Below are positions 13,177 to 51,008 of a stretch of 64,000 nt of DNA, piece after piece (within the stretch, counting starts at the first letter, position 1; the number at the start of each line of letters is the position of its first letter). A model generated the notes under the pieces. The model did no database searches, was not told where the DNA came from, and saw only the letters and a list, made by a program, of their open reading frames with translations. A program made the position numbers and the translations under genes. Source of the stretch: Candidatus Heimdallarchaeota archaeon (GTDB taxonomy: Archaea > Asgardarchaeota > Heimdallarchaeia > JABLTI01); the NCBI GenBank assembly GCA_019058275.1, contig JAHLVW010000016.1:14541-78540 (forward strand), given 5' to 3'.

Positions 13177-15744
13177 TTGATACTGTTGTCTGAAGAAAAC
13201 GAAAATGAAAATACTATTGAAGAATCAGAAGAACCTGAAACCTTAGTGACAACAGAAGAAGATGAAGACGAAGAAGCAACAGAAGCAGAAGAAACATTAG
13301 AAGCAGATACTACTGAGGATATAGATGAAGAAGTGGAAGAAGACATAGCAGCACTATTAGAAGAGGAACAAGAAGAAGTTCTGGACGAAGTGAGTGCAGA
13401 GGAAACTGAGGAAGAAGATGAATTAGAAGACGAAGAAGATACTACAGAAGAAGAACTCGAAATTCCAGATATACCACTTGATGTTGAAACAGAAGCGGAC
13501 GAATTGGAAATACCTGACATACCAATTGAAGCTAAGGAAGAAGAGCTCACTGAAGAAATAGAGGCTGAGCCAATAGAAGAAGTTCTTTCTGAGGAAGAAG
13601 AAAAAGAAGATGTAGATATAGACGATTATGGATTTGAACCTGAAGAAGTAAAGGCTATTAAGAAAGCTAAAAAGAGTAGAGCATTTCTATGGGGCTTTTT
13701 GATAGGACTTGCAGCAGCAATTATTATTGAAGTTGCATTTTCTATACCCATCTGGTTAGGTGGTGTAGGCCGTCCAGATTTGTATTATATCGAGCTAGTA
13801 CTAATTCTAGTTGCATTAATGATTCCTGGATTATTTACTAGAAGCATGCAAAAAGGCATCCTTGGGGCATTTATTATATTTATAATTTCATTTGCTGTTC
13901 CATTAGTACTTTCAGCATTTAATCTCAACTACATATTAAATCCATTAACTCCATTATTCTCAAGTACTGATTTTGCTTTAGATGCATATGATGTTTTTAG
14001 CGGGTTATTCCAAGGTCTAGAAAACGTACCTATAGCACAAATCCAAAAATGGATTTGGATTGTAGACCTAGTTTTGATGTTCATTTTAACAGTAATTGTT
14101 GTAACATTTGCTACTTGGTTACTAAAGAACATCACTATAAAAAAGAAGAAAGTTGGTCATTGGATTGGCATACCACTTTTAAGCATTGCTTTAATTGTAT
14201 TCGGTATTTTCACACCAATTCTCTTTTCATCAACATATGGGATAATAAATGCAAGCACATCATTTCTAGCAGGAGCAACTAAGATGCAAGAAGCATACGA
14301 TGTCTTTAGTACTGGAGAAGATTTCGGTACTCAACAATTAGATGCTATAGATGAAGTGTTAGTTGAAGCTAATTACTGGATGAATATTTCATCGGAGAAT
14401 TATGAAGGTTTAAGAAACATAGGCATTATTAATTTCGCAATCTTAGCGTCAGGAAGATACGGACCACTAATCGAAGCAGGTGATCAATTGGCACTATCAA
14501 CGTTAGCGTTGTCGCAGATACTTGTACCTTTATTCAACGGGCTTTATAATTTGACTGATAGCCTTAATACTGCAACAGATAGTCTATCAAACTTTGGAAC
14601 TTCTCCGAGCCTTATGCTCTCAGATACTGGACCATATACATTTGAAAAGCAAGATATTTCAGATATAGAAACATTAACAGCAGACATACTAGCAGCAGTG
14701 CAAGGTTTAGAAGCAGCAGAAGCAGCAATGGAAATTGTTAAAGCTAAACTAGAGGATGCAGAAATTGAAGGAACATTTTCTGATATAGCTGATACTTTAA
14801 GCGAGCTTGATACTGAATCAATGCAACTATTCTCAATAGGAGATGTTGTTCAGGAAATTATAAACACAATTGATACTTTTGACGATCAATTAGCTGGATT
14901 TATTGATTTTGTTTATTATGTAGCAGATTCTCTTGGACCAACAAAACACTTGTTATGGGTATCCTACAATAGTATTGTTGGTAATGAGTATTTGAGATAT
15001 AATAGATTCACTGATGCAAAGAATTCATTCCAATACGCTATAGATAATATCTCTGCAATTGATTCTTTAGCTACATACACACCAGATCCAGCTTTAGGAG
15101 AAATTTTCTCTGTTCAAGTAACAGATGGTTTTGCAACTATGTTAAATGACCTACTAGATCTAATGGAACCTCTATTGAATGAGAAATTCTATTATGCGGA
15201 AACATTTGAGAGAATAAGTCTCATAATGGAAGCTTTTGCATCTGAACCAGATATGACAACTCTTGATTATGGATCTATTGTTGTTCCTACAGCTTCAGCA
15301 GCAGTAATGCATTCATTTAGTGTCGCAACAAATACATCGCTAACAGCATTTAGAGCTAATGTTCAATTAGGAATTTATGGTTCCATATTTGATGATATCG
15401 GTAGTAATTTTGAAGAAATCTTATCAGAAGATTTCAGACCAATTGAATTCAGTCATATGACTGGTGACCTATCACTAGTTGTTACTAACTTTGTTTTAGG
15501 ATGTCAAGCATACACTGCATCAGATTTCGCATTTGCTCAAGCTAATTTGACATTTGCTGAAGACACTATGATTAATGACATTACACCAATGATAATAGCA
15601 GATGATCCAACATATCTCAAGAATTACCTCGGAAATTGGACTTTAGCAATGACTAATATCCAAAATAAGATGGAAACATTAGATACATATGCTTCAATAC
15701 AAATAGACATAGATAATCTATATATTGCAACACAAGAAAGATAA
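13177..15744 (+). CDS. Membrane protein: acidic disordered N-terminus, about 6 TM helices, large helical extracellular domain
   Basis: About 150 aa Glu/Asp-rich tail; hydrophobic segments at aa ~170-350; helical C-terminal region with several N-x-S/T sequons. Start may be TTG 13186. Confidence 0.75.
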   Translation: MILLSEENENENTIEESEEPETLVTTEEDEDEEATEAEETLEADTTEDIDEEVEEDIAALLEEEQEEVLDEVSAEETEEEDELEDEEDTTEEELEIPDIPLDVETEADELEIPDIPIEAKEEELTEEIEAEPIEEVLSEEEEKEDVDIDDYGFEPEEVKAIKKAKKSRAFLWGFLIGLAAAIIIEVAFSIPIWLGGVGRPDLYYIELVLILVALMIPGLFTRSMQKGILGAFIIFIISFAVPLVLSAFNLNYILNPLTPLFSSTDFALDAYDVFSGLFQGLENVPIAQIQKWIWIVDLVLMFILTVIVVTFATWLLKNITIKKKKVGHWIGIPLLSIALIVFGIFTPILFSSTYGIINASTSFLAGATKMQEAYDVFSTGEDFGTQQLDAIDEVLVEANYWMNISSENYEGLRNIGIINFAILASGRYGPLIEAGDQLALSTLALSQILVPLFNGLYNLTDSLNTATDSLSNFGTSPSLMLSDTGPYTFEKQDISDIETLTADILAAVQGLEAAEAAMEIVKAKLEDAEIEGTFSDIADTLSELDTESMQLFSIGDVVQEIINTIDTFDDQLAGFIDFVYYVADSLGPTKHLLWVSYNSIVGNEYLRYNRFTDAKNSFQYAIDNISAIDSLATYTPDPALGEIFSVQVTDGFATMLNDLLDLMEPLLNEKFYYAETFERISLIMEAFASEPDMTTLDYGSIVVPTASAAVMHSFSVATNTSLTAFRANVQLGIYGSIFDDIGSNFEEILSEDFRPIEFSHMTGDLSLVVTNFVLGCQAYTASDFAFAQANLTFAEDTMINDITPMIIADDPTYLKNYLGNWTLAMTNIQNKMETLDTYASIQIDIDNLYIATQER

Positions 15745-15785: not shown

Positions 15786-16619
15786 TTATTCAGTTATTTC
15801 TTCATCAATAATTTCTGGATAGAGGAATCTACGTTCTTTTAGATATCCACCTATTAATCCACCAGATATTGCCATCACTGAAAACAGCAGAAGGAATAAT
15901 GCTGAATTTATTATCATTTTTGAAATAGTATTCCAATCTGCACTGAAGAAAGCAATAAATAATGCTGTAATCGGTAGAACAGAAATAAAACTAGCAATCA
16001 TACCAGAACGTCTTTCGCCTGCTACCATACCACCAAAAAAGCCACTAATAATGAAACCAACTAATAAAATGATTAAACCAAGGAGACCTCCAGATTCAGG
16101 TAAAGCAGCTTCAATTAGTTCTATTGTAAAAGCATACACAACAAACAAAGCTCCTATTACAGCAGCAGTTATTATTGCGCCAACACTTAGTGAAACTATA
16201 TTCCTAGAAGCGGTTGTTCCTTCCAATTTTTTTGTTATATTTTCCTCAAATGTTCTAAAAGGCGATACATCAGTTGTTGCTCCTTCATCAAGAAGATGTT
16301 TGTATTTATTTCTAAAATCAGTCAAGAGTCCCAAAAGCGTTTCATTAACCAACGGCTCATAATCATTTGAATGACATATTGCTGCTATAATATAACGATC
16401 ATCAGCTTTGTATGCTAATTTTCTATCAATACCTTCTATAGCAGAGATATCTACTAGACCAGCCTCGCTTGAAAAGTTTCTAAATGCTAACAAAAGCCCT
16501 GAAACTAGTTGCTCATCTATTGTTTTCTCTTTGGTTTCAGTACACCAGTCGTAGATACAAATCCCGCTATGACTATCAATTAACCAAATGTTTTCTATAG
16601 CCAAATTTAACTCAACCAT
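15786..16619 (-). CDS. Longin-domain protein fused to four C-terminal TM helices
   Basis: IWLIDSHSGICIY..IDEQLVSGLLLAFRNFSSE..FRNKY..DVSPFRTFEENI is the Asgard longin pattern, followed by 4 hydrophobic helices. Confidence 0.8.
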   Translation of the reverse strand: MVELNLAIENIWLIDSHSGICIYDWCTETKEKTIDEQLVSGLLLAFRNFSSEAGLVDISAIEGIDRKLAYKADDRYIIAAICHSNDYEPLVNETLLGLLTDFRNKYKHLLDEGATTDVSPFRTFEENITKKLEGTTASRNIVSLSVGAIITAAVIGALFVVYAFTIELIEAALPESGGLLGLIILLVGFIISGFFGGMVAGERRSGMIASFISVLPITALFIAFFSADWNTISKMIINSALFLLLFSVMAISGGLIGGYLKERRFLYPEIIDEEITE

Positions 16620-16818
16620 AATTATTAATTTGTTACTATAGAATAAGTTTCACTAACATTATTTTACTTTTGTGGGATAAAATAATTGCAGATAAATTGA
16701 AAATCTTAAGTCTTCTTTTGTTGAGAAATTTTGTCTGTTGAATTTTACCGCAAGCGGAAACTTATTATTAATAATTTCAAAGGTAAGATATCGTATACTC
16801 TATTCAAGAGGGGACGAT

Positions 16819-17226
16819 ATGAAACTTATTGAGTGTTCGAAAGTAAAAATATCAGATGCAATAAACTCACCCATATTACCCGAAACAGTAAAAAGTGATT
16901 TGAAAGGGTCGGGCGACACTTTTCTAACAATTTATACAAAGAAGAGTAAAACTTTGAGGTTTTTCCCCACCAAAGATGATGAAATTTGGTGGTTAAGAAT
17001 TGCTATTAATAGCTTTAGTCCTGAAACAAGTGGTAAATTTTTAGCGAAACTCAATAAGCTTGTCTCAGATTTTGTCTATTCTACAGGCGTATGCATCTCC
17101 AAATCTGATTGTTTTTGGGATGGAATTATTCTTGAATCATCCTTCAAAACAAGCAAAGAAAATGTGAGAGAAACTTTAGAAGAAATTCCAAATGTAACAA
17201 AGGTTATAATAAATGCTGTAGAATAA
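16819..17226 (+). CDS. Putative AbrB-like plus ACT-domain regulator
   Basis: N-terminal swapped-hairpin-like pattern (PILPETVKSDLKGSGD..LRFFP) and a C-terminal beta-alpha-beta-beta-alpha-beta pattern ending LEEIPNVTKV. Confidence 0.5.
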   Translation: MKLIECSKVKISDAINSPILPETVKSDLKGSGDTFLTIYTKKSKTLRFFPTKDDEIWWLRIAINSFSPETSGKFLAKLNKLVSDFVYSTGVCISKSDCFWDGIILESSFKTSKENVRETLEEIPNVTKVIINAVE

Positions 17227-17273: not shown

Positions 17274-17699
17274 TTAAAAATCTAGTTCTTTTACTCTATT
17301 AACTATAAATCGATTCATTACAATCCAATATTCTACTTCAGCAGTTTTACCTGCACCTACTATTTCATTTAGTTTAGCAAGATGCTCTTCACTGGAAGGT
17401 TTTGGAATTGAAATTGTTTCATATGATTCTTTGTCCATTACTGACATTTCTTCACCTTCGACAGTAATAACTTGAGCATTTCTTTTATCGATAATTGGTA
17501 CTTGTACTCTATTTGTAGATGGCATTACGATGGATCTCTTCTTTTTATCAAAAAGGCCAATAACTTCCATTCTTATTTTAGCATGACCATGCTTTCCTGT
17601 TTTTGAATGGCTTAAATCTAGAACTTGACATGGTTCTTCATCAGCTAAGATGTAGTTACCTCTTTTAATGGAATTTGCCTCTGTTGGTCGGGTTGACAT
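17274..17699 (-). CDS. eif5a: Translation factor aIF-5A
   Basis: Hypusine loop SKTGKHGHAK; VQVPIIDKRNAQV. Confidence 0.97.
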   Translation of the reverse strand: MSTRPTEANSIKRGNYILADEEPCQVLDLSHSKTGKHGHAKIRMEVIGLFDKKKRSIVMPSTNRVQVPIIDKRNAQVITVEGEEMSVMDKESYETISIPKPSSEEHLAKLNEIVGAGKTAEVEYWIVMNRFIVNRVKELDF

Positions 17700-17886
17700 G
17701 ATATTCACTCATTTACTTTTTATTATTGATTAAAATAACCAGCATTAAAGTTTTTTTGTTACTGTTATGTTTTTACATAACACAAACTTTTATCATTTAT
17801 TCTTATTACTTTAATATTATAGATTAAATAGTACATATAGTAAGTATTTAAAAACAAATATGAGAGATTCAGAGTTGTGATATAAT

Positions 17887-20766
17887 TTGATGAAAAATTA
17901 CAAATACCCGCTTGTAACAGGAGGTATCTTATTCTTAGTGGTACTGCTTAGTGGTTTTTGTAATTATGGTTACGCTATAAATGATATCGATTATCGAATT
18001 ACTTCAAAAAGTGATGATAATTTAGATAAAACTTTCAATCCCTTAGATGAGTTTACAGAGGATGATGCAGGAAGTGGAGGTGATGCAAATGATTCCTTAC
18101 CATTTGCTACAAATATTATTCCTGGAAGTTATAATGGAACATTAACAGCTGATGACATAGATTGCTATACATTCTATGTAGAAATTGGAGTAATCATTAA
18201 TTTCACAATGATTCCCCTAAATTTCACTGTTGATTTTAATTTACAACTTTATGACCCAGGTCAATCACTGATATTGAGAGAAGATCCAAATGGTGCCGGA
18301 GTGCGTGAATCAATAATATGGTCTACTGCATATGCAGGAAATTATTTTGCTAAAATATCACCAGCAACTGTTAGTGATATAGCAAATTATACATTTTCAA
18401 TTTCCACACAAGAACAAAACGATTTTAATTCTGGTACAGATGCTGGTAACTTTTTTGCTACATCATTGAATATTAGTGCAGGTAATTCTAGTGGAACTAT
18501 GGTTGTTGATAGTGATGTTTATGATTTTTATGAAATTTCTCTTACCAAGGGAGATGTTATTGATATTTTCCTAAAACCTCTTAATACAACTAACATTGAT
18601 TTATTCTTGTTTGATTCAAGCGTAGTTGAATTAGCAAGTTCTACAAAATTCACAGGTATTAATGAGTCGATTTACTACGCAATCAGCATTAATGGATCTT
18701 ATGTTATTGGTGTACAATTAATTGAAGCAACTGGTGTAGAAGAAATATTGCCATACAATATTTCAATTATTATTGACAGACAAGATGATGCTGATTCAGG
18801 AACAGATGCTGGTGACATTCCAGAAGATGCCTACTTAATCACACCTTTAATGGGTTCAAAATTTGAAGGAAGATTAATTTGGAATGGAGACCAGAGGGAC
18901 TTTTACAGATTTGTTATTTCGCAACAATCACAAATTTTTGTGCATTTAGAAGTACCTGAGAATGTTAATTTCGATCTTGCAATTTATGATCATGAAGGAG
19001 CAATTCTATATTCATCAGAGAAAGAATGGGGTAATGAATATATTTCAGAAATTCTACAAAATGGCACATATTATATATCAATCGAATTCATGACAGGTGG
19101 AACAGCTATTGAGGGGCAATATACCCTGGAGTTTAGTATCATTCCTCTTGCACTAAACACAACAACTGGTTTAAATCCTGGAGAATGGATTCCTATTGTT
19201 ATATCAGCTGTTTTAGTACCGATTTCATTATTGATTATAATTATATTAGTTTTATACATGTTTACTGAGGTTAGAATTCCTTGGGTTTCAAAGAAACTTG
19301 ACCAATACTTCAGTAAGGAAGGACAAGAAGACAGTGTAAAATCCCTTAGATATGCTTTACGAGTGAGAGATGATCAAATTGGCACTCTACGTGAAGAAAT
19401 GATTGATAAGGATTCTAAAAGAGCAAAAGACTTGGAATCCCTTCATCGTCTCGAGGAAGATCAGAAATCCAAAGAAAAGGTTCTGACTAAATTACGAGAA
19501 GAAAGTACTGGATTAAAAACTCAACTAGATAACTTACAAGCAGTTAATGATGACTTGGCAAATATTATTGATAGTACGATAAGAAGGCAATTATCTAAAT
19601 CAAGTAAACCTTCACAAAAGGCTAATGTTTCTTCAATAACATCACTTTTATGGTTATCTGAAGAAAGACTGGTTAATTACATCCAATCTATTCCATTGTT
19701 AAATGAACGATATATACTCGATAGATCAAAAAGCGTAATATTAACTCGAGAATACGCAAGAGAAATAGTAAGACAAGCCTATTGGAAGAGAGTAGGTGCT
19801 ATGCATCTCAAGAAAATTAAGCAAGTAAAAATTGCTAATTTAGCTGATGACACGAAAATCGAAATCAATACTTTGAAAGAAATTCTACGAGAACTAGTTG
19901 AAAGAAAAGAGATTCCCGCGCCAATACATATGGATCGAATCTCCTTGCTACTGTCGATATCAGAGGAGCTTATTGCAGAATTAGCAGATATTGCTCAATC
20001 AATGCCTATTATTTCCTTAAAGGAAATATCAAAATCCTACGATACAACTCCAGATAGTGCTAAGGTTATCTTTGAACGAATTGCTGAAGAAGGATACGCA
20101 AATGGTGAATTCATAAATGATGATACTTTTGTTGTTTTTGATTTGTTTGCTGAAATGATTATTAATGAAGGAAGCATTAAAATCTCAAAGTTAATAGAGG
20201 AAAATAAACTGCAAGGTCAAAAAGAAGAGATTAAAATTGTTGTTGAGAAGCTTTTACAATCAAATGAAATTGAGGGAGAATTCTTAACTGATGACATGTT
20301 TCTATGCTTCAATAACCTTACTGATCAACTTAAAACGCTAATTAAATCAAGCATTGAAAACATCGCTAAAGGTGATACAAGACGAGTTGTTTTTGATATG
20401 GGAAGTGTAGTTGAATCTATCACTAAAGAACGATTAATCATTGATATTCATGAAACTGAAGATATATCAAAATTACCTCGTTATCAAGACATCATTGAAT
20501 CTAGGGAACTTGGAAGAATACTACGTGCTGCAGAGGACAACAAAATATCATTGCCATCTTTTATTGAACTAAAATCCCTCAACAGATTCTGGGCTCAGAA
20601 AATTAAACATACAAAACCAGGAGAACTACCTTACATTCCAACACTAGGTGAGTCTCGAGACTTTTTATTTGAAGCTAATAAAGCATTGAATAAACTATTG
20701 TCACAAAAGATTCCCACAAAATGGAAGAAAAAGATAGCTGAAAAGCTTTTGAAAGATAATAAATAA
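17887..20766 (+). CDS. Single-pass receptor-like protein: signal peptide, 3x PPC domains, TM, coiled coil, winged-helix array, HEPN-like C-terminal domain
   Basis: Three repeats D-x-x-SG-x-DA..D-F/C-Y..D/N-F/I-D/N-L-x-L-Y/F-D..G-x-Y; TM at aa ~435-460; heptads at aa ~485-565; wH repeats (ISLKEIS..IAEEGYANGEFINDDTF); helical C-terminus. Confidence 0.75.
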   Translation: MMKNYKYPLVTGGILFLVVLLSGFCNYGYAINDIDYRITSKSDDNLDKTFNPLDEFTEDDAGSGGDANDSLPFATNIIPGSYNGTLTADDIDCYTFYVEIGVIINFTMIPLNFTVDFNLQLYDPGQSLILREDPNGAGVRESIIWSTAYAGNYFAKISPATVSDIANYTFSISTQEQNDFNSGTDAGNFFATSLNISAGNSSGTMVVDSDVYDFYEISLTKGDVIDIFLKPLNTTNIDLFLFDSSVVELASSTKFTGINESIYYAISINGSYVIGVQLIEATGVEEILPYNISIIIDRQDDADSGTDAGDIPEDAYLITPLMGSKFEGRLIWNGDQRDFYRFVISQQSQIFVHLEVPENVNFDLAIYDHEGAILYSSEKEWGNEYISEILQNGTYYISIEFMTGGTAIEGQYTLEFSIIPLALNTTTGLNPGEWIPIVISAVLVPISLLIIIILVLYMFTEVRIPWVSKKLDQYFSKEGQEDSVKSLRYALRVRDDQIGTLREEMIDKDSKRAKDLESLHRLEEDQKSKEKVLTKLREESTGLKTQLDNLQAVNDDLANIIDSTIRRQLSKSSKPSQKANVSSITSLLWLSEERLVNYIQSIPLLNERYILDRSKSVILTREYAREIVRQAYWKRVGAMHLKKIKQVKIANLADDTKIEINTLKEILRELVERKEIPAPIHMDRISLLLSISEELIAELADIAQSMPIISLKEISKSYDTTPDSAKVIFERIAEEGYANGEFINDDTFVVFDLFAEMIINEGSIKISKLIEENKLQGQKEEIKIVVEKLLQSNEIEGEFLTDDMFLCFNNLTDQLKTLIKSSIENIAKGDTRRVVFDMGSVVESITKERLIIDIHETEDISKLPRYQDIIESRELGRILRAAEDNKISLPSFIELKSLNRFWAQKIKHTKPGELPYIPTLGESRDFLFEANKALNKLLSQKIPTKWKKKIAEKLLKDNK

Positions 20767-20810: not shown

Positions 20811-23519
20811 TTAAGTTATTATATAAGCTAGTTTCCTTCTATTCTGGAAGAACATGAAAATACGTTCAATAAAGGAAATAGAAGGTTTATGAATTAGTAT
20901 TATGCTATCTTCGTATATATAGAGAAATTCTAATCGATTCAATTTTACTTCTTTCTCTTCATCTAATGTTTCAACCTTAATTGCTTCTTCTTCAATTTGA
21001 GTAATCTTGCCTTTGAGCAGTGTGTCTAAATCATCTTTTGTTTGCAGTGAAACAGGTTTACCATTTAATGATTCAATAATTGAACGTTGTTGCTTTTCTT
21101 TTCCTTTCTTAAGATAAATATCAAATGGTTTGAAACCAATAACAAATTTCTCAGCAGAAATTGTCTTAGTTTGTTCTCCTAAGGTAATAATGAATGTGCT
21201 TGCTGAAAAGTCAGCTTCATTCAATTCAAATGAATCCAAATGAGTTAAACGAGTAATCCCTTTTTGTAATAGTAGAATATCTCTTCCAACGATATCATTA
21301 ATATAGGATATTGGAACTCCAGGAACCTTTAGTTCTTTGATTTCCTCTTCACCGTTCTCAACGAATTTTGTTTTAAATGTAAAGATCTTTTCATTACCAC
21401 CAATTTCAACAATCTCACCAATTTTTCCATTCTTGAAAACTTGTTTTTGTCCTAAGGACATTTCATAGATGTTGAAGTCACTAGCAAAGACTGATTCTTT
21501 CTGTTTGTCTGATGAAGTCTTAAGCTTTAGTGGTGATGTTATTTTATTTGACAAGGTGATATCTTCTAGTTTTCCTATTATGAAGTTCTTTTTGTCTATT
21601 TTTGAAACTGCTACAATATCCTTACCTTTCAGATATTCAAATTGATAAGATAAGTGTGAAAGTGTATCATAATCTTTTATTCCTGTTTCACTATATTGGT
21701 CTTGGAATGTTTCATTTATGATATCAGCAGCCTTTTTCCGCATTTCATGCAATTCACGAATGAAATCCCTTCTTACAAATGGAACTAGTAGAAAGAATGG
21801 TAATAGCGCTGCTTTAAATGGTCGAAGCTTTTCTTGTTCAACTAAAGCCATAACTCTATAAGCAGATTTAGGATGACTTGCTATTAAATTAACAAAATTC
21901 TCCATAACATTTGGTTTAATATAATTCCTATACATATTTCTTCCAGCATCACCTAAGAATCGCAACTTCTCTGATTTTGTTTGTTCTTTGTCTGTTAGCA
22001 AATAGACACTCAAACCCATTTCACTTGCTACGCCTTGATAAAAACCATCAAGTTTAACAAGAGATTTAGCAAGTGGTTTCCCATAACCAGCTCTCATTGT
22101 TAGAAGATCTGCTCTTCCTTCAAGAAACCTAACAAATATGTAAGAGAAAGCTAGCAAAGCAATATTGTATAAATAATACCAGAGAAAACCAAATCCTACA
22201 TCAGGATCGAATATGTAATCAAGAGTAGTTGCTGGTAAATTAAGTGCTTTTGTAATAGCAAATGTTAGTGCTGTAAGTATCAACAGCCAAAAGGTATGGA
22301 TTTTTTGAGAATGTACTAATTCATGTCCCGCAATACCTCTTATATCATCATCTGAAAAATCTGAAAGATCTTTTGACATAAAAGCTATTCTTTTATCAAA
22401 AAATGCTCCAAAGGCAAAGGCATTTAGGATTGGAGCCTTTACTTTTCCAACTTTTATTTTTGTTCTAATTCTAAGTTTTTGTCTTACTTCTTCAACAAGT
22501 TTCAAAACTCTCTCATGGTGTTTTCTATCTATGACTTTTTGTTCCAATTTTTCAACTAATTTTGTTATACGTTTACTACTAAGTTCGGAAGTTTCTGTTT
22601 TTAATTTATCAATTGATTTCAATATTTGCTCATCTTTAACTTGTTTAGTTAATTTGTTCTCAATATCATCAACAGATTTGATAACATTCTCCTCTGCATC
22701 TTTTTTCACTAATTTCTGTTTTATTTTAGCAGTCAATTTTGTGAAATCTTCTTCCTTTATATTCTTGACTCCAAAGATTAGATGAAGCAAAGGTCCAGAT
22801 ATAAGATAAAGAACAAAATTCGTAAGAATCATAATTTCATAGGTTCCAAAGGAAGCGAATAATAGCCGTTCTGCTACAGGACCCGTAAAAGTACCATAGA
22901 AGAAATTTAGACCATCTTCACCAAAATTTGAAAATTGATATAGGATAACATATGAGAAAGCAAATAGCAAAAGATAAATGATTTGTGGTGATGTTAAGCG
23001 AGATACTAAAAAGAATCTTCTACCAAAGAATATGATACAAAGTAAGAAGAAAACATAGATAAAAACATTCCAGGCAAGTCCGAACCATTGTTGACCATTA
23101 AATGCTCCAAGTGTAAAAGCACCTTCATCACCATCAAAATGGAATTTTGAATATGTTTCCATTACGAATTGCATTATTCTACCAGCTAGAACAACAACAT
23201 AAGATATCAGAGAGGCTAACATCAATTCGCGCCATACTGGACTTTCACGAATAACCCAAAGTGAAAAAATCATTAACCAACATAAAGCTGCAAGAATAGC
23301 TAGCAAAGCATCTTGAGTGAAACCTTGAATTAAACCACCAATAACTCCTCCTAGTAACATCATAACTAAATCAGGTTCATTCTTCTGAGTTATTACAGTA
23401 TATAACTCAGTTAGTAGAAATATACCACAAAAAATGGCTATAATAAATCCTAAAGTTGCTGGTAAATTTTCTGTTGAAAACCAATCTCTAAGAACATCAG
23501 TAAAAGCTGCTAATTCCAT
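20811..23519 (-). CDS. M48 (HtpX/Ste24-like) membrane metalloprotease with N-terminal multi-TM region and C-terminal beta-barrel domains
   Basis: NAFAFG, HELVH zinc motif, EGRAD, LAKSLVKL and SHP..R motifs; about 7 extra N-terminal TM helices; beta-rich C-terminal third. Confidence 0.85.
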   Translation of the reverse strand: MELAAFTDVLRDWFSTENLPATLGFIIAIFCGIFLLTELYTVITQKNEPDLVMMLLGGVIGGLIQGFTQDALLAILAALCWLMIFSLWVIRESPVWRELMLASLISYVVVLAGRIMQFVMETYSKFHFDGDEGAFTLGAFNGQQWFGLAWNVFIYVFFLLCIIFFGRRFFLVSRLTSPQIIYLLLFAFSYVILYQFSNFGEDGLNFFYGTFTGPVAERLLFASFGTYEIMILTNFVLYLISGPLLHLIFGVKNIKEEDFTKLTAKIKQKLVKKDAEENVIKSVDDIENKLTKQVKDEQILKSIDKLKTETSELSSKRITKLVEKLEQKVIDRKHHERVLKLVEEVRQKLRIRTKIKVGKVKAPILNAFAFGAFFDKRIAFMSKDLSDFSDDDIRGIAGHELVHSQKIHTFWLLILTALTFAITKALNLPATTLDYIFDPDVGFGFLWYYLYNIALLAFSYIFVRFLEGRADLLTMRAGYGKPLAKSLVKLDGFYQGVASEMGLSVYLLTDKEQTKSEKLRFLGDAGRNMYRNYIKPNVMENFVNLIASHPKSAYRVMALVEQEKLRPFKAALLPFFLLVPFVRRDFIRELHEMRKKAADIINETFQDQYSETGIKDYDTLSHLSYQFEYLKGKDIVAVSKIDKKNFIIGKLEDITLSNKITSPLKLKTSSDKQKESVFASDFNIYEMSLGQKQVFKNGKIGEIVEIGGNEKIFTFKTKFVENGEEEIKELKVPGVPISYINDIVGRDILLLQKGITRLTHLDSFELNEADFSASTFIITLGEQTKTISAEKFVIGFKPFDIYLKKGKEKQQRSIIESLNGKPVSLQTKDDLDTLLKGKITQIEEEAIKVETLDEEKEVKLNRLEFLYIYEDSIILIHKPSISFIERIFMFFQNRRKLAYIIT

Positions 23520-23693: not shown

Positions 23694-24995
23694 TTATTTT
23701 CTTCTGAAATCAATAGTTATTGCATGTGCTGAACAAGATATGCAAGGATCATAGGATCTGACCAGCATATTTAGAAGTAATTCAATTTCCTCTTGTTTCT
23801 TATCAGCAATCATTGGGGCAAATTTCTTGACATCATCCTCAATTTTGTTCGTATTATGTGCAGTTGGGGTTATTACATCAACACGAGTGATAATACCATC
23901 TTTGTCCACATCATATGAATGATTAAGGAGTCCTCGTGGAGCTTCTGTAGCGATTGTACCAGTGCCTGCTTTAATCTTGAAATCTTTGTTGTCATCTTTA
24001 GGTGGTTTCTCAATGTATTTGTCAGATATTTCAATTGCTTTATCTACACAATGCATTAACTCAATAACTCTTGTGAGATTGTTATTAAATGGATTAAAAT
24101 TTGGGAGTTTCAAACTAAATTGCTTTACCAAAGCTTTAGCATCATCAGTTAAGAATTTATTATTGATATTTACTCTTGCAAGAGGAGAAACATAATAAAT
24201 CTCACCATTGTTTATCGTTGAAAATTTTGCAGTAGAATAATCTCGAACTTCTTCTTTAATGAAGTCCTTTTTGTAATCCTCAGCAGGAATAGTTTTTCCA
24301 CTAAGCAAGCATTTTAGATCGCCTTTGAGAAATGGATAGGTTTTTCCATCATAGATAGCTATCTGTTCTGTTTTATTGTTAAATTTTGGCATTTCCAATC
24401 CTGCATAGAGGTCAGCAAGAACTTGTGTTCCTTTTTTAAATACAATTAATTTTTCTTTCATGGTCTCTAGTTGCTTAGTTGTTGGGTATTTACCAAAACC
24501 ACCCGGTCTAATGTTTACTGGATGGATTTCACGACCGCCTATCAATGCCTGTAAATCATTAGCTATCCTTTTCATTCTGAGAATTAGCTTAACTTCATTT
24601 GGAAACTTTGGTACCATTTGTATGACTCCATCATATCCTAAGAAATCAGGCAAAGCAAGCATTCCTACGTGTAAAATATGAGATTGAGTATTTTCTCCAT
24701 GATCTAATAAGAGTCTGAAGTCTTCAACTTGTTTGCTCGGTTCAATACTAACTGAACGTTCTAACGCTTCAACAGCGGATAATTGATGGGAAGCACTACA
24801 GATAGCACAAATTCTAGACATAATATTAATTGCTTCATTATATTTTCTGCCAACAGCTAATCCTTCAAAGAATCTTGCTCCTTCTATGATTTGCATTTCT
24901 ACATTGTTGATTTCTTTCTTATCCATTTCAACTAGTAGACTTCCGTGACCTTCTACACGACAAATGTGTTCTAAATGTAATTTCTTTACTGTCAT
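23694..24995 (-). CDS. hydA: Group 3b [NiFe]-hydrogenase large (alpha) subunit
   Basis: RVEGHG, L1 RICAICSASH, EAPRG, L2 YDPCISCSAH with a cleavable C-terminal tail; operon context beta-gamma-delta-alpha. Confidence 0.93.
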   Translation of the reverse strand: MTVKKLHLEHICRVEGHGSLLVEMDKKEINNVEMQIIEGARFFEGLAVGRKYNEAINIMSRICAICSASHQLSAVEALERSVSIEPSKQVEDFRLLLDHGENTQSHILHVGMLALPDFLGYDGVIQMVPKFPNEVKLILRMKRIANDLQALIGGREIHPVNIRPGGFGKYPTTKQLETMKEKLIVFKKGTQVLADLYAGLEMPKFNNKTEQIAIYDGKTYPFLKGDLKCLLSGKTIPAEDYKKDFIKEEVRDYSTAKFSTINNGEIYYVSPLARVNINNKFLTDDAKALVKQFSLKLPNFNPFNNNLTRVIELMHCVDKAIEISDKYIEKPPKDDNKDFKIKAGTGTIATEAPRGLLNHSYDVDKDGIITRVDVITPTAHNTNKIEDDVKKFAPMIADKKQEEIELLLNMLVRSYDPCISCSAHAITIDFRRK

Positions 24996-25008
24996 TTCAC
25001 ATTCCCAC

Positions 25009-25821
25009 CTATTCTTTATCATCCTCTCCATACTTGAGATTTTTATCTTGCTCTATCCAAGCTTTTAATAAAAATTCCTTCACCTGAGGGTCTTCGCCAT
25101 TATATTTTAAAACAAATCTAGTGACATCGCTCACAGATGCGCCTTTTTTCACCATTAAATCAACTTGCTGTTGATATGCTGCTTCTAATGTCGAACCACG
25201 ACAACCATCACATGGTAATCCATAACTTGGACATAATGCATCACACCCAGCTTGAATTACTGGTCCCATACAAATTATATTATCCTCTAAGAAAATGCAT
25301 CGATTTTCTTTTGCCTTACATTGATGACAAACAGGCAGATTTGGTAATTTTGGTTTACCACCAATAAGGACATACTTAACAAAATCTAAGAATTCATATT
25401 TGTTAACAGGACATTCAAGTATATAATGATCTACCTCAACCACATTGTTAATGGGTTTAACTTTGATAACTGGAAGTTTATCAGCATCTTTACCATATTG
25501 TGCTTCTCGGATTACTCGATCATTTCTATAGTTTCTAATTGCTTGCACGCCCCCAAAACAAGCACATGATCCTATTGCTACGAGAACTTTTGCTTTAGTC
25601 CTTAGTTCTTTTAGTTCTTTTTCTTGTTTTTTATTTACGATGCTTCCTTCAACGAATAGAATATCATATGGACCTTTCTTATTACCAGTCATAGCCATTC
25701 TGAAATCGATGATATCAACTAAGTTCAATAAGTCAAGTAGCTCATCTTCTAGATCAAGAATACTAAGCTGGCAACCAGTGCAACCAGTAAATCCAACTAT
25801 TCCAATTTTTGGTTTTGACAC
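25009..25821 (-). CDS. hydD: Group 3b [NiFe]-hydrogenase small (delta) subunit
   Basis: GCTGC, FVEGS, IGSCACFGGV, VCHQC, CMGPV..AGCDALCP..PCDGCRG. Confidence 0.92.
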   Translation of the reverse strand: MSKPKIGIVGFTGCTGCQLSILDLEDELLDLLNLVDIIDFRMAMTGNKKGPYDILFVEGSIVNKKQEKELKELRTKAKVLVAIGSCACFGGVQAIRNYRNDRVIREAQYGKDADKLPVIKVKPINNVVEVDHYILECPVNKYEFLDFVKYVLIGGKPKLPNLPVCHQCKAKENRCIFLEDNIICMGPVIQAGCDALCPSYGLPCDGCRGSTLEAAYQQQVDLMVKKGASVSDVTRFVLKYNGEDPQVKEFLLKAWIEQDKNLKYGEDDKE

Positions 25822-26681
25822 TACATCAAAGCCTCCGGTAATGTTCTGATTTGCCTTAAGGTGAAGACTGGTCCATCAATGCAGACAAATTTATCACCTA
25901 CACCACAATGGCAACATTTACCAACACCACATTTCATTTTCCTTTCAAGAGACAGGTAAATGTGATCACTATTCAAACCGAGTTTTTCAAGTTCTATAAG
26001 TACGAATTTGTACATAATAGGTGGTCCACAAATCATTGCTATCGTATTTTTAGTGTCAATTTGATCAGCAATCTTTGGAAAGAGATTTGTAACTACTCCT
26101 AAATTCCCTTCCCAGCACCTATCATCATCACGATCAACAGTGCATTGGAAATCTATGTCTTCTCGAACTTCATATTCATCATTTTCTTCAGGGAACAATA
26201 TATCTGATGGGCATCGATCACCATAAAGCAAGAATATTTTACCATAGTCTTCTTTTTTATCAATTGCATATCTAAATACAGAACGAAGAGGTAGATAACC
26301 TAAACCACCAGTAATGAAAAGTAAATCTTTGCCTTTGTAGTCTGCTATTGGGAATCCATTTCCAAATGGTCCTCTAATACCTACAATATCACCTTTTTTC
26401 ATATTATGAATGGCATTTGTTACATTGCCGACATTTCTTATACCTAATTCAAAGGAACCTCTTTTTGTTGGAGGTGATGTTATACTAATAGGAACTTCTC
26501 CAATACCATATATTGATACCTCAACGAATTGTCCAGGAACATGTTCAAATAAAGGATTTAAATGGTTTTGAACAAATTTTAACTCAAACAGTTTTGTAGT
26601 ATCAGTTAGTTCTCGAATGTTTACTATTTTAGCTTCATGGGGTATGCTAATACCTTTATCGTGGGTAACTATTGCTCTCAT
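25821..26681 (-). CDS. hydG: Hydrogenase gamma subunit (FAD/NAD(P)-binding, 2Fe-2S)
   Basis: PGQF, RGPFGNGF, GGLG, CGPPIM, SLERKMKCGVGKCCHC, VCIDGPVF. Confidence 0.9.
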   Translation of the reverse strand: MRAIVTHDKGISIPHEAKIVNIRELTDTTKLFELKFVQNHLNPLFEHVPGQFVEVSIYGIGEVPISITSPPTKRGSFELGIRNVGNVTNAIHNMKKGDIVGIRGPFGNGFPIADYKGKDLLFITGGLGYLPLRSVFRYAIDKKEDYGKIFLLYGDRCPSDILFPEENDEYEVREDIDFQCTVDRDDDRCWEGNLGVVTNLFPKIADQIDTKNTIAMICGPPIMYKFVLIELEKLGLNSDHIYLSLERKMKCGVGKCCHCGVGDKFVCIDGPVFTLRQIRTLPEALM

Positions 26682-26682
26682 T

Positions 26683-27726
26683 TTACATTTCACCTCTAAC
26701 GTCTTCTACAACATCTCTAACATCAATAACTGCTGGACAGTAAGTAATGCATCTTCCACAACCAACGCACCCTTCAACATTATATCTTCTTGGTATATCG
26801 ATAAATTTGTGCAGATAACGATACCTAAATCGCCTTTCCTTTTCATGTCGAAAGTCATGTCCACCAGCTACACTTGCAAATTCGGGATAGTAGCATGAGT
26901 CCCATTCTCTTTGTCTAGTTCCAGTTTTTAGATCAATTGAGATCTTATCCTTTACATTAAAACAGTAACAAGTTGGACAGACAAAAGTACAAGAACCACA
27001 AAACAGACATTCTTTTGTATATTTCTTCCAAGCACGAGATTCGAATTTATCTTCCAATTCACTTGGTAATCCTTCAACAAGAATGTATTTCTTGAAATTA
27101 TTCTTTTTAAGCTCAAGGGTTCTTACATATTTTTCAAAATCATCATCTGTTGGCTCTTGAAAGAGATCTGGATATAATTTAAGAATTCGTTTACCACCAT
27201 CGGTATTTGGGACTATAATAAATTTATCTTTAGCAATTTCTGTGAGCATTATATCATAACCACTTTTAGGATCATTTGAGCTCATTGACTCACAGAAACA
27301 ATTCTCATAACATGGTTGCAAACAATTTATACCAATAATAAGGGCTCTTTCTCTAAGAGTGCTATAGAATTCATCTCTGAAATATTCCTTAAAAATCTTA
27401 TCTAGAACATTATTTCCAGTTATATCGCAAGGTCTGACACCAAAAACAACGATTTTCTTTTCAACACCAATATCTGATTCATCTAAACAGCTTTTAATCA
27501 CACCTTTAGTTCGATTAAATTTAAATAAATCTTGTTTGGCAGGATGAAAGAGTTTCTTTATTGATATCATTGGAAGTTCGGTATCAAATAGAACCTCATC
27601 TGAACTGGATATTTCTATAAGAGTTGGTACATTATTTTTATCTGTTGTTGCTATAACTACAAAATCACCTATCATAGCATCTACAAGTTCAGGAATTTTT
27701 TTTCTTGATATTAACTTTGAGACCAT
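26683..27726 (-). CDS. hydB: Hydrogenase beta subunit (AsrA-like 4Fe-4S protein)
   Basis: GVRPCD, CFC, CLFCGSCTFVCPTCYC, R.WDSC, CVGCGRCITYCP. Confidence 0.9.
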   Translation of the reverse strand: MVSKLISRKKIPELVDAMIGDFVVIATTDKNNVPTLIEISSSDEVLFDTELPMISIKKLFHPAKQDLFKFNRTKGVIKSCLDESDIGVEKKIVVFGVRPCDITGNNVLDKIFKEYFRDEFYSTLRERALIIGINCLQPCYENCFCESMSSNDPKSGYDIMLTEIAKDKFIIVPNTDGGKRILKLYPDLFQEPTDDDFEKYVRTLELKKNNFKKYILVEGLPSELEDKFESRAWKKYTKECLFCGSCTFVCPTCYCFNVKDKISIDLKTGTRQREWDSCYYPEFASVAGGHDFRHEKERRFRYRYLHKFIDIPRRYNVEGCVGCGRCITYCPAVIDVRDVVEDVRGEM

Positions 27727-50195: not shown

Positions 50196-51008
50196 ATGTC
50201 AGTTAAAGAGAAGAAATCGAAATCAAAAACAAAGAAGAAACCTGAAAAGGAAGATGTTCAGATTAAGGAAAAAGTAAAGAAACCAAAAGAAAAACCCGCT
50301 GAGAAAACTAAAACTGAAGTCAAGCCACCAAGAGAGGCTACTCTTATCATTTCTCTCATTGAAAACCCCGTAACTACTGAAGAAAAAATTTACAATGCTA
50401 TGCTTCGTATTGAACAATTAATTGAATCTGATGTAGCAATTTCTCGAGAAGATTTATTCGATTTAGGAGAGGATATTGAGAGACAGCTGATGGAAATTTT
50501 ACCAGAATGGATAAATAAACCTTGGATGTATGTCACTCCCGAACACCAACAGCAATTAGATTCATGGTGTTCTGATTGGTCTAATTTTATTATGGAGTAT
50601 GCTCGAATAAACATCAAGCATATTATTCATATCGAAGAAGAGAGAGCAAAATATCCATTTAATAATAAACCAGTAAAGAAACGATTAGCTAGAAAACAAC
50701 TACAACAAATTGGAAATTATATTGTTGCTCAAGAAATGGGAATATGGTGGGATAAGAAGAAAATTAGATTGCGTCTTTATTGGCGTACTCTTGATGAATG
50801 GGCAGATATCATATATGAATGGAGCATCAAAACAGGTCGTGCAGCAGGTGCTGAACGTGTTATGACATTATATGATATCCAACAAGCAAATCAACCTTGG
50901 AGTACTATTCCACAAGAAGATCTTAGGCGAATCTTCGATATTATGGATGATAAGGGATACATTGAGTGGGCTGATAAAAAGAAAAATATTATTGCTTTTA
51001 TTTTCTAA
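50196..51008 (+). CDS. vps25: ESCRT-II Vps25 (EAP20) homolog with N-terminal extension
   Basis: QLDSWCSDW..PFNN..KRL..W.DK..YWRTLDEWADIIYEW..VMTLYDI matches the two winged helices of Vps25; adjacent to vps4. Confidence 0.88.
   Translation: MSVKEKKSKSKTKKKPEKEDVQIKEKVKKPKEKPAEKTKTEVKPPREATLIISLIENPVTTEEKIYNAMLRIEQLIESDVAISREDLFDLGEDIERQLMEILPEWINKPWMYVTPEHQQQLDSWCSDWSNFIMEYARINIKHIIHIEEERAKYPFNNKPVKKRLARKQLQQIGNYIVAQEMGIWWDKKKIRLRLYWRTLDEWADIIYEWSIKTGRAAGAERVMTLYDIQQANQPWSTIPQEDLRRIFDIMDDKGYIEWADKKKNIIAFIF

Follow-up and report, generated by a model that had tools for sequence, protein, structure and literature searches.

What kind of protein is encoded beside the translation factor gene aIF5A on contig JAHLVW010000016.1 of Candidatus Heimdallarchaeota archaeon (assembly GCA_019058275.1), and does it represent a new system? 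The window analysed here, a stretch of 64,000 nucleotides, carries at 17887-20766 a gene which an earlier note described as joining extracellular PPC repeats to a winged-helix array resembling UFL1 and DDRGK1, the partners of the eukaryotic UFM1 ligase. We report that three of its four winged helices are homologous, remotely but specifically, to the PCI-type array found in Asgard UFL1/DDRGK1-like proteins. The open reading frame (ORF) and the anatomy assigned to it proved to be real: a database orthologue cluster supports the frame, with an ATG at 17890, and the claimed parts (signal peptide, three PPC repeats, one transmembrane helix, coiled coil, winged helices, of which there are four, and a helical C-terminal domain) were all recovered in an architecture conserved across homologues. 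Residues are numbered by the 959-aa translation from TTG, and the parts are as follows.

17887-20766 (+), ORF from TTG, 3 nt upstream of the ATG; 959-aa translation
17890..20766 (+), whole gene from the ATG start, 958 aa; start as in the database orthologue cluster
17887..17979 (+), putative signal peptide or N-terminal hydrophobic segment (aa 1-31; Kyte-Doolittle scan)
18058..18411 (+), PPC repeat 1 (aa 58-175), opening with an acidic DDAGSGGDA motif (Pfam PF04151, profile matches to the collagenase collagen-binding domain (CBD), motif position)
18412..18777 (+), PPC repeat 2 (aa 176-297; PF04151, collagenase CBD profile matches, motif position)
18778..19161 (+), PPC repeat 3 (aa 298-425), with the best Pfam stretch, aa 337-399, inside it (PF04151, motif position)
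19186..19266 (+), single transmembrane helix (aa 434-460), positive residues at its C-terminal side (Kyte-Doolittle scan)
19336..19596 (+), coiled-coil stalk (aa 484-570; 87-residue helix in the AlphaFold2 (AF2) model, one heptad register)
19618..19812 (+), winged helix 1 (aa 578-642), with the invariant basic helix YWKRVGAMHLKKIKQVK at its end (AF2 models, invariant columns)
19813..20001 (+), winged-helix-like unit 2 (aa 643-705), with a KEIPAPIHMD loop for a wing (AF2; aligns as a winged-helix unit to Asgard UFL1-like proteins)
20002..20169 (+), winged helix 3 (aa 706-761), PCI/DDRGK-like, wing motif GEFINDDTFVV
20170..20313 (+), winged helix 4 (aa 762-809), with the lowest conservation among the cytoplasmic units (AF2, conservation, hhalign)
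20320..20763 (+), predicted HEPN-like helical tail (aa 812-959), ~145 residues
20584..20610 (+), invariant R900-x7-H908 motif (NRFWAQKIKH, then TKPG), a candidate functional site (invariant columns)

The assignment of the array rests on structure and on profile comparison. From 22 sequences, AF2 modelled aa 470-959 (predicted local distance difference test, pLDDT, 80) as one 87-residue helix, four winged-helix units and a seven-helix tail, and a separate model of the array alone concurs (pLDDT 79). Wings are formed in units 1, 3 and 4, while unit 2 has a degenerate wing whose place is taken by the invariant loop KEIPAPIHMD. When the whole cytoplasmic model was compared with the PDB by Foldseek, ribosome-bound human UFL1 ranked first (8qfc_B at 2.1e-6, then 9gy4_E and 8ohd_A), followed by an engineered UFL1-DDRGK1 chimera (8b9x, 1.7e-5) and SelB (1.1e-3). 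The array alone gave UFL1 at 3.3e-7 to 7.6e-7, 8b9x at 3.7e-6, SelB at 7.5e-5 and all else at 6e-3 or above. In a shape search of the ESM Atlas the top row was a cluster of 77 Asgard proteins with PCI, E3_UFM1_ligase and DDRGK domains, followed by two clusters of eukaryotic UFL1 and then by SelB.

Profile alignment by hhalign points the same way. Against 13 diverse Asgard UFL1-like members, which themselves pass the Pfam cut-offs for PF09743 and PF09756, the array aligned with 97.2% probability (E 3.3e-11, score 86.9, 167 columns), query positions 67-237 falling on template positions 203-374 and three units being in register; on the template, this stretch covers the end of DDRGK plus the initial 150 residues of the region matched by PF09743 (E3_UFM1_ligase). 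Soluble Heimdall relatives of 250-280 aa were aligned at 94.9% (E 4.6e-8, 168 columns). The controls remained low, with Asgard ESCRT-II EAP30 at 2.1%, Vps25 at 1.0%, and reversed or column-shuffled profiles at 0.1-1.5% with scores of 12-24. Since the Foldseek, Atlas and hhalign results are all headed by UFL1-type proteins while the ESCRT-II and shuffled controls are at noise, the array is specifically of UFL1/DDRGK1 type: its place, though remote, is in the PCI/UFL1/DDRGK1 class of winged helices and not among generic ones. The claim that these winged helices go beyond generic resemblance is thus upheld, and the DDRGK pattern noted by eye for the unit ending in GEFINDDTFVV was sound. The order typical of DDRGK1 (membrane anchor, long helix, PCI-like winged helix) is likewise present.

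Several observations limit this assignment. The template modelling scores (TM-scores) are low (0.3-0.43) because inter-domain orientation is not matched. The protein has no direct Pfam or PDB sequence match to UFL1, DDRGK or HEPN: PF09743 is absent from its own matches at E<=1 and from the 25 families listed for its homologues, neither it nor the homologues match DDRGK (PF09756) directly in Pfam, and six-frame genome searches with PF09743 (E<=10) and with PF09756 did not have the locus among the matches listed. Beyond PPC, Pfam and NCBIfam searches of the protein and 22-23 homologues yielded solely weak PCI matches (5 members, best 6e-6) and wHTH-PRTase_assc, and sequence and profile searches of the PDB with the cytoplasmic part, the array and the tail gave no relevant match. 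Used as a query, the alignment of Asgard UFL1-like proteins itself matched Asgard proteins only, and no eukaryotic UFL1. Finally, the protein is confined to one GTDB family, so that a lineage-specific assembly is more likely than an ancestral state; taken with the remoteness of the homology, this range makes reshuffling within the lineage likelier than descent from the ancestor of the eukaryotic complex.

This range was established in several ways. The protein is matched by 41 database clusters, all from Asgard/Heimdall metagenome bins, with 62-78% identity in the cytoplasmic half. An exhaustive phmmer search with aa 575-959 against 1.84 billion cluster representatives found two clusters only, both from the same family, and hence no distant relatives by single-sequence search. 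Among 400 Asgard genomes, a profile of the cytoplasmic part matched nine of the ten further members of the genus but not a single one of the 389 genomes elsewhere. The sister genus holds a positional orthologue adjoining aIF5A, which is cut by a contig end and whose ectodomain is 49% identical. The matches within the genus and this orthologue together delimit the range to one GTDB family, in which the gene is single-copy. A TGA reported inside the match in one genome (G082) is not found in the locus sequence of that genome. Conservation is uneven along the chain, with mean pairwise identities of 0.68-0.77 in the cytoplasmic part (0.52 in winged helix 4) as against 0.46-0.56 in the PPC repeats. 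Invariant blocks of the cytoplasmic part include YWKRVGAMHLKKIKQVK, KEIPAPIHMD and ELKSLNRFWAQKIKHTKPGELPYIP.

Judged from its sequence, the protein is a type I single-pass membrane protein, a receptor-like surface glycoprotein whose C-terminal half is cytoplasmic. A Kyte-Doolittle scan places an N-terminal hydrophobic stretch at aa 7-27 and a strong transmembrane helix at aa 434-460, directly followed by R and then KK. The ectodomain (aa 32-436) has a net charge of -47 and 13 N-x-S/T sequons, as against two in the 489 cytoplasmic residues. The N-terminal signal, the transmembrane helix and this asymmetry of charge and sequons lead to the assignment as an archaeal type I surface glycoprotein. 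PF04151 matches the protein in three stretches (E 5.4e-12, 46.9 bits against a cut-off of 25.9) and also matches 21 of 21 full-length homologues, and the family profile finds in the PDB the Ca-dependent collagen-binding domains of clostridial collagenases (5iku at 4.8e-8, 1nqd at 1.6e-5). An acidic ND..SG.DAG motif begins every repeat (aa 58, 176 and 298), and the ectodomain is accordingly predicted to consist of three acidic beta-sandwich repeats of the PPC, collagenase CBD-like kind.

Between membrane and array, a single heptad register runs over ~100 residues of the long helix, whose a and d positions are 53% and 47% core-hydrophobic, as against 24% overall and at most 20% in other registers. 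So regular a register is that of a coiled coil, which implies that the chains oligomerise. A homodimer predicted from two copies of aa 470-959 scored 0.28 against a mark of 0.42, and this speaks neither for nor against a dimer.

The tail had been called HEPN- or DUF4145-like with a degenerate Rx4H motif. The fold part of this proposal is probably right: in its modelled fold the tail appears to be a HEPN-like helical bundle, and in a Foldseek-independent search of 48,161 chains HEPN-family structures made up most of its matches, with tabulated values of 7.8 for TT1696, 7.7 for LsoA, 7.5 for both ST0689 and AF0298, 7.4 for Csm6, 7.3 for RnlA, 7.2 for HI0074 and 7.0 for ANT-4'. The remainder did not stand, as there is neither a canonical Rx4-6H motif nor a HEPN or DUF4145 signal at the level of sequence. 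None of 23 tails matched a Pfam HEPN family or DUF4145 (PF13643) at E<=10, and hhalign gave 0.5% against a 55-sequence DUF4145 alignment. Across all the families compared with the tail (Asgard UFL1-like proteins including their Vps28 tail, the soluble 250-280-aa family, EAP30, Vps25 and DUF4145) the probability was at most 0.6%. A feature search of the Atlas scored at most 0.80, which is noise level, and its DUF4145 row (0.77) and Ymh row are leads only. The sole invariant R...H pair is R900-x7-H908; the same R-x7-H spacing recurs in an Asgard DUF4145 protein (LRVFGNEAVH, locus L100), a resemblance at the level of the motif only.

If the array is of UFL1/DDRGK1 type, the question arises whether a UFM1 system accompanies it. 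Neither Ufm1 (PF03671) nor UFC1 (PF08694) was detected above the Pfam cut-off in any of 12 genomes of the family, that of origin (93% complete) and 11 others, and neither a UFM1 function nor the ribosome quality-control function suggested earlier finds support here. Sub-threshold Ufm1 matches of 17-20 bits, at profile positions 19-56, occur in ORFs of ~660-920 aa which belong to no Pfam family. In the genome of origin the site is G000:C115:29774-29881, in the ORF at L021:4194-6173 (-), with orthologues in G081, G084, G087 and G091 (G, C and L numbers are our handles for genomes, contigs and loci), and a gene for a ThiF-type E1 (L021:3092-3847) lies ~350 bp from this ORF. The region may be an embedded ubiquitin-like domain.

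Relatives of the array are otherwise widespread among Asgard archaea. PF09743 exceeds its curated cut-off in 141 of 400 genomes, mostly in soluble proteins of ~790 aa that combine zinc fingers with DDRGK, E3_UFM1_ligase and PCI domains and with the C-terminal domain of Vps28; such proteins are found in none of 11 genomes of the family studied here. Soluble Asgard UFL1/DDRGK/PCI proteins have been described before (Liu et al. 2020, bioRxiv 10.1101/2020.10.19.343400; Picchianti et al. 2023, PMC10183829), the E3_UFM1_ligase domain has been found shuffled into unusual Asgard architectures (bioRxiv 10.1101/2020.10.19.343400), and UFL1 and DDRGK1 have been traced to an Asgard origin which, on the published view, predates UFM1, possibly with a UFM1-independent role (PMC10183829). 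The array of these Asgard proteins represents the lineage thought to have given rise to eukaryotic UFL1 and DDRGK1. With such shuffled relatives already published in these two studies, the designation of the present protein as a new system was overstated. What is new is the architecture, within a scaffold class already known from Asgard archaea; the literature searched contains no description of a protein that combines a PPC ectodomain, transmembrane helix and coiled coil with a UFL1-type array and a HEPN-like tail.

Further members of the class were encountered. The genome of origin encodes a soluble protein of 278 aa (G000:C9; L022:2672-3508, -) with weak Pfam matches to PCI (3.4e-5) and E3_UFM1_ligase (0.0022), and the soluble Heimdall family of 250-280 aa aligns with the Asgard UFL1-like proteins at 98.6% by hhalign. 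In this genome the gene is divergent from that of ribosomal protein P1. No P1 gene was seen beside it in 3-kb loci (~1 kb flanks) from seven genomes of another Heimdall family (f3), and the adjacency is probably coincidental. A 640-aa protein from another Asgard family (L090:703-2622, -; genome G319) carries an N-terminal hydrophobic anchor, MLTALLILGGIGAGLYAW, followed by a PF09743 array (E 1.8e-7), a predicted mode of anchoring which is DDRGK1-like. In a 1023-aa protein (L097:853-3921, +; genome G124), a beta-propeller resembling FG-GAP, BBS7 and BBS2 is joined to DDRGK, E3_UFM1_ligase and PCI winged helices and a zinc ribbon.

The surroundings of the gene within the window are these.

13177-15744 (+), 15786-16619 (-) and 16738-17226 (+), genes of 855, 277 and 162 aa, without Pfam families, collinear including in the sister genus
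17274..17708 (-), aIF5A, divergently transcribed neighbour (Pfam; synteny)
20811..23519 (-), M48 (HtpX-type) membrane protease, 902 aa, convergent neighbour (Pfam; synteny)
23694-27726 (-), four-gene NiFe hydrogenase cluster just downstream of M48
50196-51008 (+), ESCRT-II Vps25 homologue (PF05871, E 8.3e-20), ~30 kb from the gene

The block around the gene is collinear throughout the family, including the three upstream genes without Pfam families. The M48 gene is convergent in 13 of 13 loci examined, and aIF5A adjoins divergently in every locus that reaches it. The protease is approximately three times the usual size, and orthologues of 800-830 aa occur in Heimdall families which lack the gene studied here. 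The hydrogenase cluster, which is kept in L001 and L002, encodes a large subunit, an Oxidored_q6 small subunit, an FAD/NAD-binding subunit and a Fer4_22 iron-sulfur subunit, the last by the annotation of the collinear gene in these two loci.

Linkage to aIF5A outside the family was considered and rejected, the genes being unlinked in four other Heimdall families. Across those searched, the M48 gene is separated from aIF5A, being on another contig or, in genome G015, at a distance of ~430 kb. Adjacency is kept only within the collinear family block and therefore carries no independent functional weight; the meaningful connection to aIF5A which the earlier note had proposed could not be sustained, the two genes also being divergently transcribed.

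We assign a rough probability of 0.5 to the reading of the protein as a docking and signalling platform that is tethered to the membrane and independent of UFM1. Its ectodomain would bind an external ligand or surface, the coiled coil would hold two or more chains in parallel, and the winged-helix array would recruit a cytoplasmic macromolecule, be it a protein complex, a ribosome or RNA. Paired HEPN-like tails would then be the likely output module, binding RNA or nucleotides or possibly acting as an RNase; the protein would not act as a UFM1 ligase. We regard the array as a macromolecule-binding scaffold because PCI-type winged helices mediate protein contacts and those of UFL1 contact the 60S subunit, and as the organism has no detectable UFM1 system, the scaffold probably serves another role. 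HEPN domains usually function as dimers, and the logic of the protein, though only the logic, therefore resembles that of IRE1.

Other explanations draw on the same evidence. A functional counterpart of the UFM1 E3 ligase of the endoplasmic reticulum (ER), DDRGK1/UFL1, docking on large ribosomal subunits in ribosome quality control with aIF5A, would account for the order of transmembrane helix, long helix, UFL1/DDRGK1-type array and helical C-terminal domain, for top PDB matches which are 60S-bound UFL1 structures (8qfc, 8ohd, 9gy4), and for the aIF5A neighbour. Yet Ufm1 and UFC1 remain below cut-off in the 12 genomes, where the only matches, of 18-20 bits, lie inside ORFs of ~700 aa; the synteny is informative only within one collinear family; a coiled-coil stalk and large ectodomain are foreign to DDRGK1; and the protein is restricted to one Heimdall family. 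Such a counterpart is very unlikely. Winged helices could also suggest a membrane-tethered transcription regulator, whose ectodomain would sense a signal and whose winged helices would bind DNA either while still anchored or once freed by proteolysis, for instance by the neighbouring M48 protease. The fold is the commonest DNA-binding fold of archaea, single winged-helix structural matches include HmgR, MntR, BirA, PurR and NiaR, and the protease is a constant neighbour. We nevertheless give this explanation little credence, as the array is related to PCI/UFL1-type winged helices, which contact protein rather than DNA, the winged-helix region has a net charge of -10, M48 orthologues exist where the gene does not, and four tandem winged helices with a HEPN domain are no known layout of a transcription factor.

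The tail and ectodomain invite two further explanations. In a virus- or damage-sensing defence system, engagement of the ectodomain would activate a HEPN RNase and shut down translation in the manner of abortive infection. The invariant R and H of the HEPN-like tail, the presence of defence and toxin HEPN proteins (Csm6, LsoA, RnlA, AbiV) among its structural matches and the faster evolution of the ectodomain are compatible with this, but PADLOC returned no match, R900-x7-H908 is not canonical, and a single-copy gene at a fixed, housekeeping-flanked site in nine of ten other genus genomes is unlike a mobile defence island; the chance that defence is the function appears slight. An adhesin or envelope anchor, whose cytoplasmic part links to membrane-remodelling or cytoskeletal machinery and whose tail is non-catalytic, would suit the three glycosylatable, collagen-binding-like repeats. 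Lokiarchaeia fuse the same winged-helix scaffold to the ESCRT-I Vps28 C-terminal domain (bioRxiv 10.1101/2020.10.19.343400), and the HEPN domains of sacsin and Roquin are non-catalytic. Such a structural role is unlikely, given that the cytoplasmic domain is the most conserved part and has many invariant charged residues, which argues for a specific activity, and that the locus has neither an ESCRT domain nor an ESCRT gene as neighbour.

A bolder form of the docking platform, which we hold to be quite unlikely, would make the protein a living example of a pre-UFM1 DDRGK1/UFL1 scaffold, docking translating ribosomes or their mRNAs at the cell membrane in a close archaeal relative of eukaryotes and using a dimerising HEPN domain to cleave or sense RNA. 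If true, ER-associated ribosome surveillance would have a prokaryotic forerunner or analogue, in which an extracellular PPC sensor controls docking of the DDRGK1/UFL1 kind and an output like that of IRE1. UFL1 and DDRGK1 are among the few components of UFMylation traced to Asgard archaea (PMC10183829), and their role before UFM1 is the question on which this protein bears. The published Asgard relatives, and most of those in the present analysis, are soluble; this family joins the same type of scaffold to an anchor in the membrane and to a long helix, as eukaryotes do by means of DDRGK1, and further adds a putative extracellular sensor and a putative HEPN-like output domain, in genomes of Heimdallarchaeia without a detectable UFM1 system. 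The segment aa 470-959 offers an expressible construct for asking what a UFM1-free UFL1-type scaffold binds.

Among known systems, the tail has its comparators in the HEPN superfamily: sacsin (3o10), TT1696 (1ufb), ST0689 (1wol), AF0298 (2hsb), Csm6 (6tug), LsoA/RnlA and Roquin. IRE1 and RNase L are functional analogues, sharing the scheme of an outside sensor, a single transmembrane helix, an oligomerising module and a C-terminal HEPN-class domain, the KEN domain, which needs dimerisation; unlike IRE1, the protein has no kinase domain, and neither a sequence nor a fold match to KEN was seen. The C-terminal array of four winged helices in SelB (1lva, 2uwm, 1wsu) is alike in fold only, SelB being bacterial, binding SECIS RNA and carrying an EF-Tu-like GTPase, whereas no GTPase domain is found here by Pfam. 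The closest relative in the same genome is the soluble protein of the 250-280-aa Heimdall family (G000:C9), which lacks the ectodomain, transmembrane helix, coiled coil and HEPN-like tail. With the ~790-aa Asgard UFL1-like proteins the protein has a homologous array in common, and both are Asgard-specific shuffled architectures, but the former are cytosolic, without a transmembrane helix and with zinc fingers and a Vps28 tail.

The comparison with eukaryotic DDRGK1 (UFBP1)-UFL1 (8qfc, 8ohd, 9gy4, 8b9x, 8c0d) extends furthest. There the complex consists of two chains, has ~seven winged helices and a long helix in DDRGK1, ends in the coiled coil and C-terminal domain of UFL1, and is served by UFM1, UFC1 and CDK5RAP3, partners which were not detected in the genome studied here. 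The Heimdall protein is one chain of type I topology with a large PPC ectodomain, a heptad coiled coil, four winged helices and a HEPN-like tail. Nonetheless, both present an anchor, a long helix, a PCI-type tandem winged-helix array and a helical C-terminal region in the same order, and both contain the wing motif 'G-x-F/I-x-D-D/x-x-x-F'; DDRGK1 and UFL1, read as one chain, reproduce the Heimdall order of transmembrane helix, long helix, array and helical C-terminal domain.

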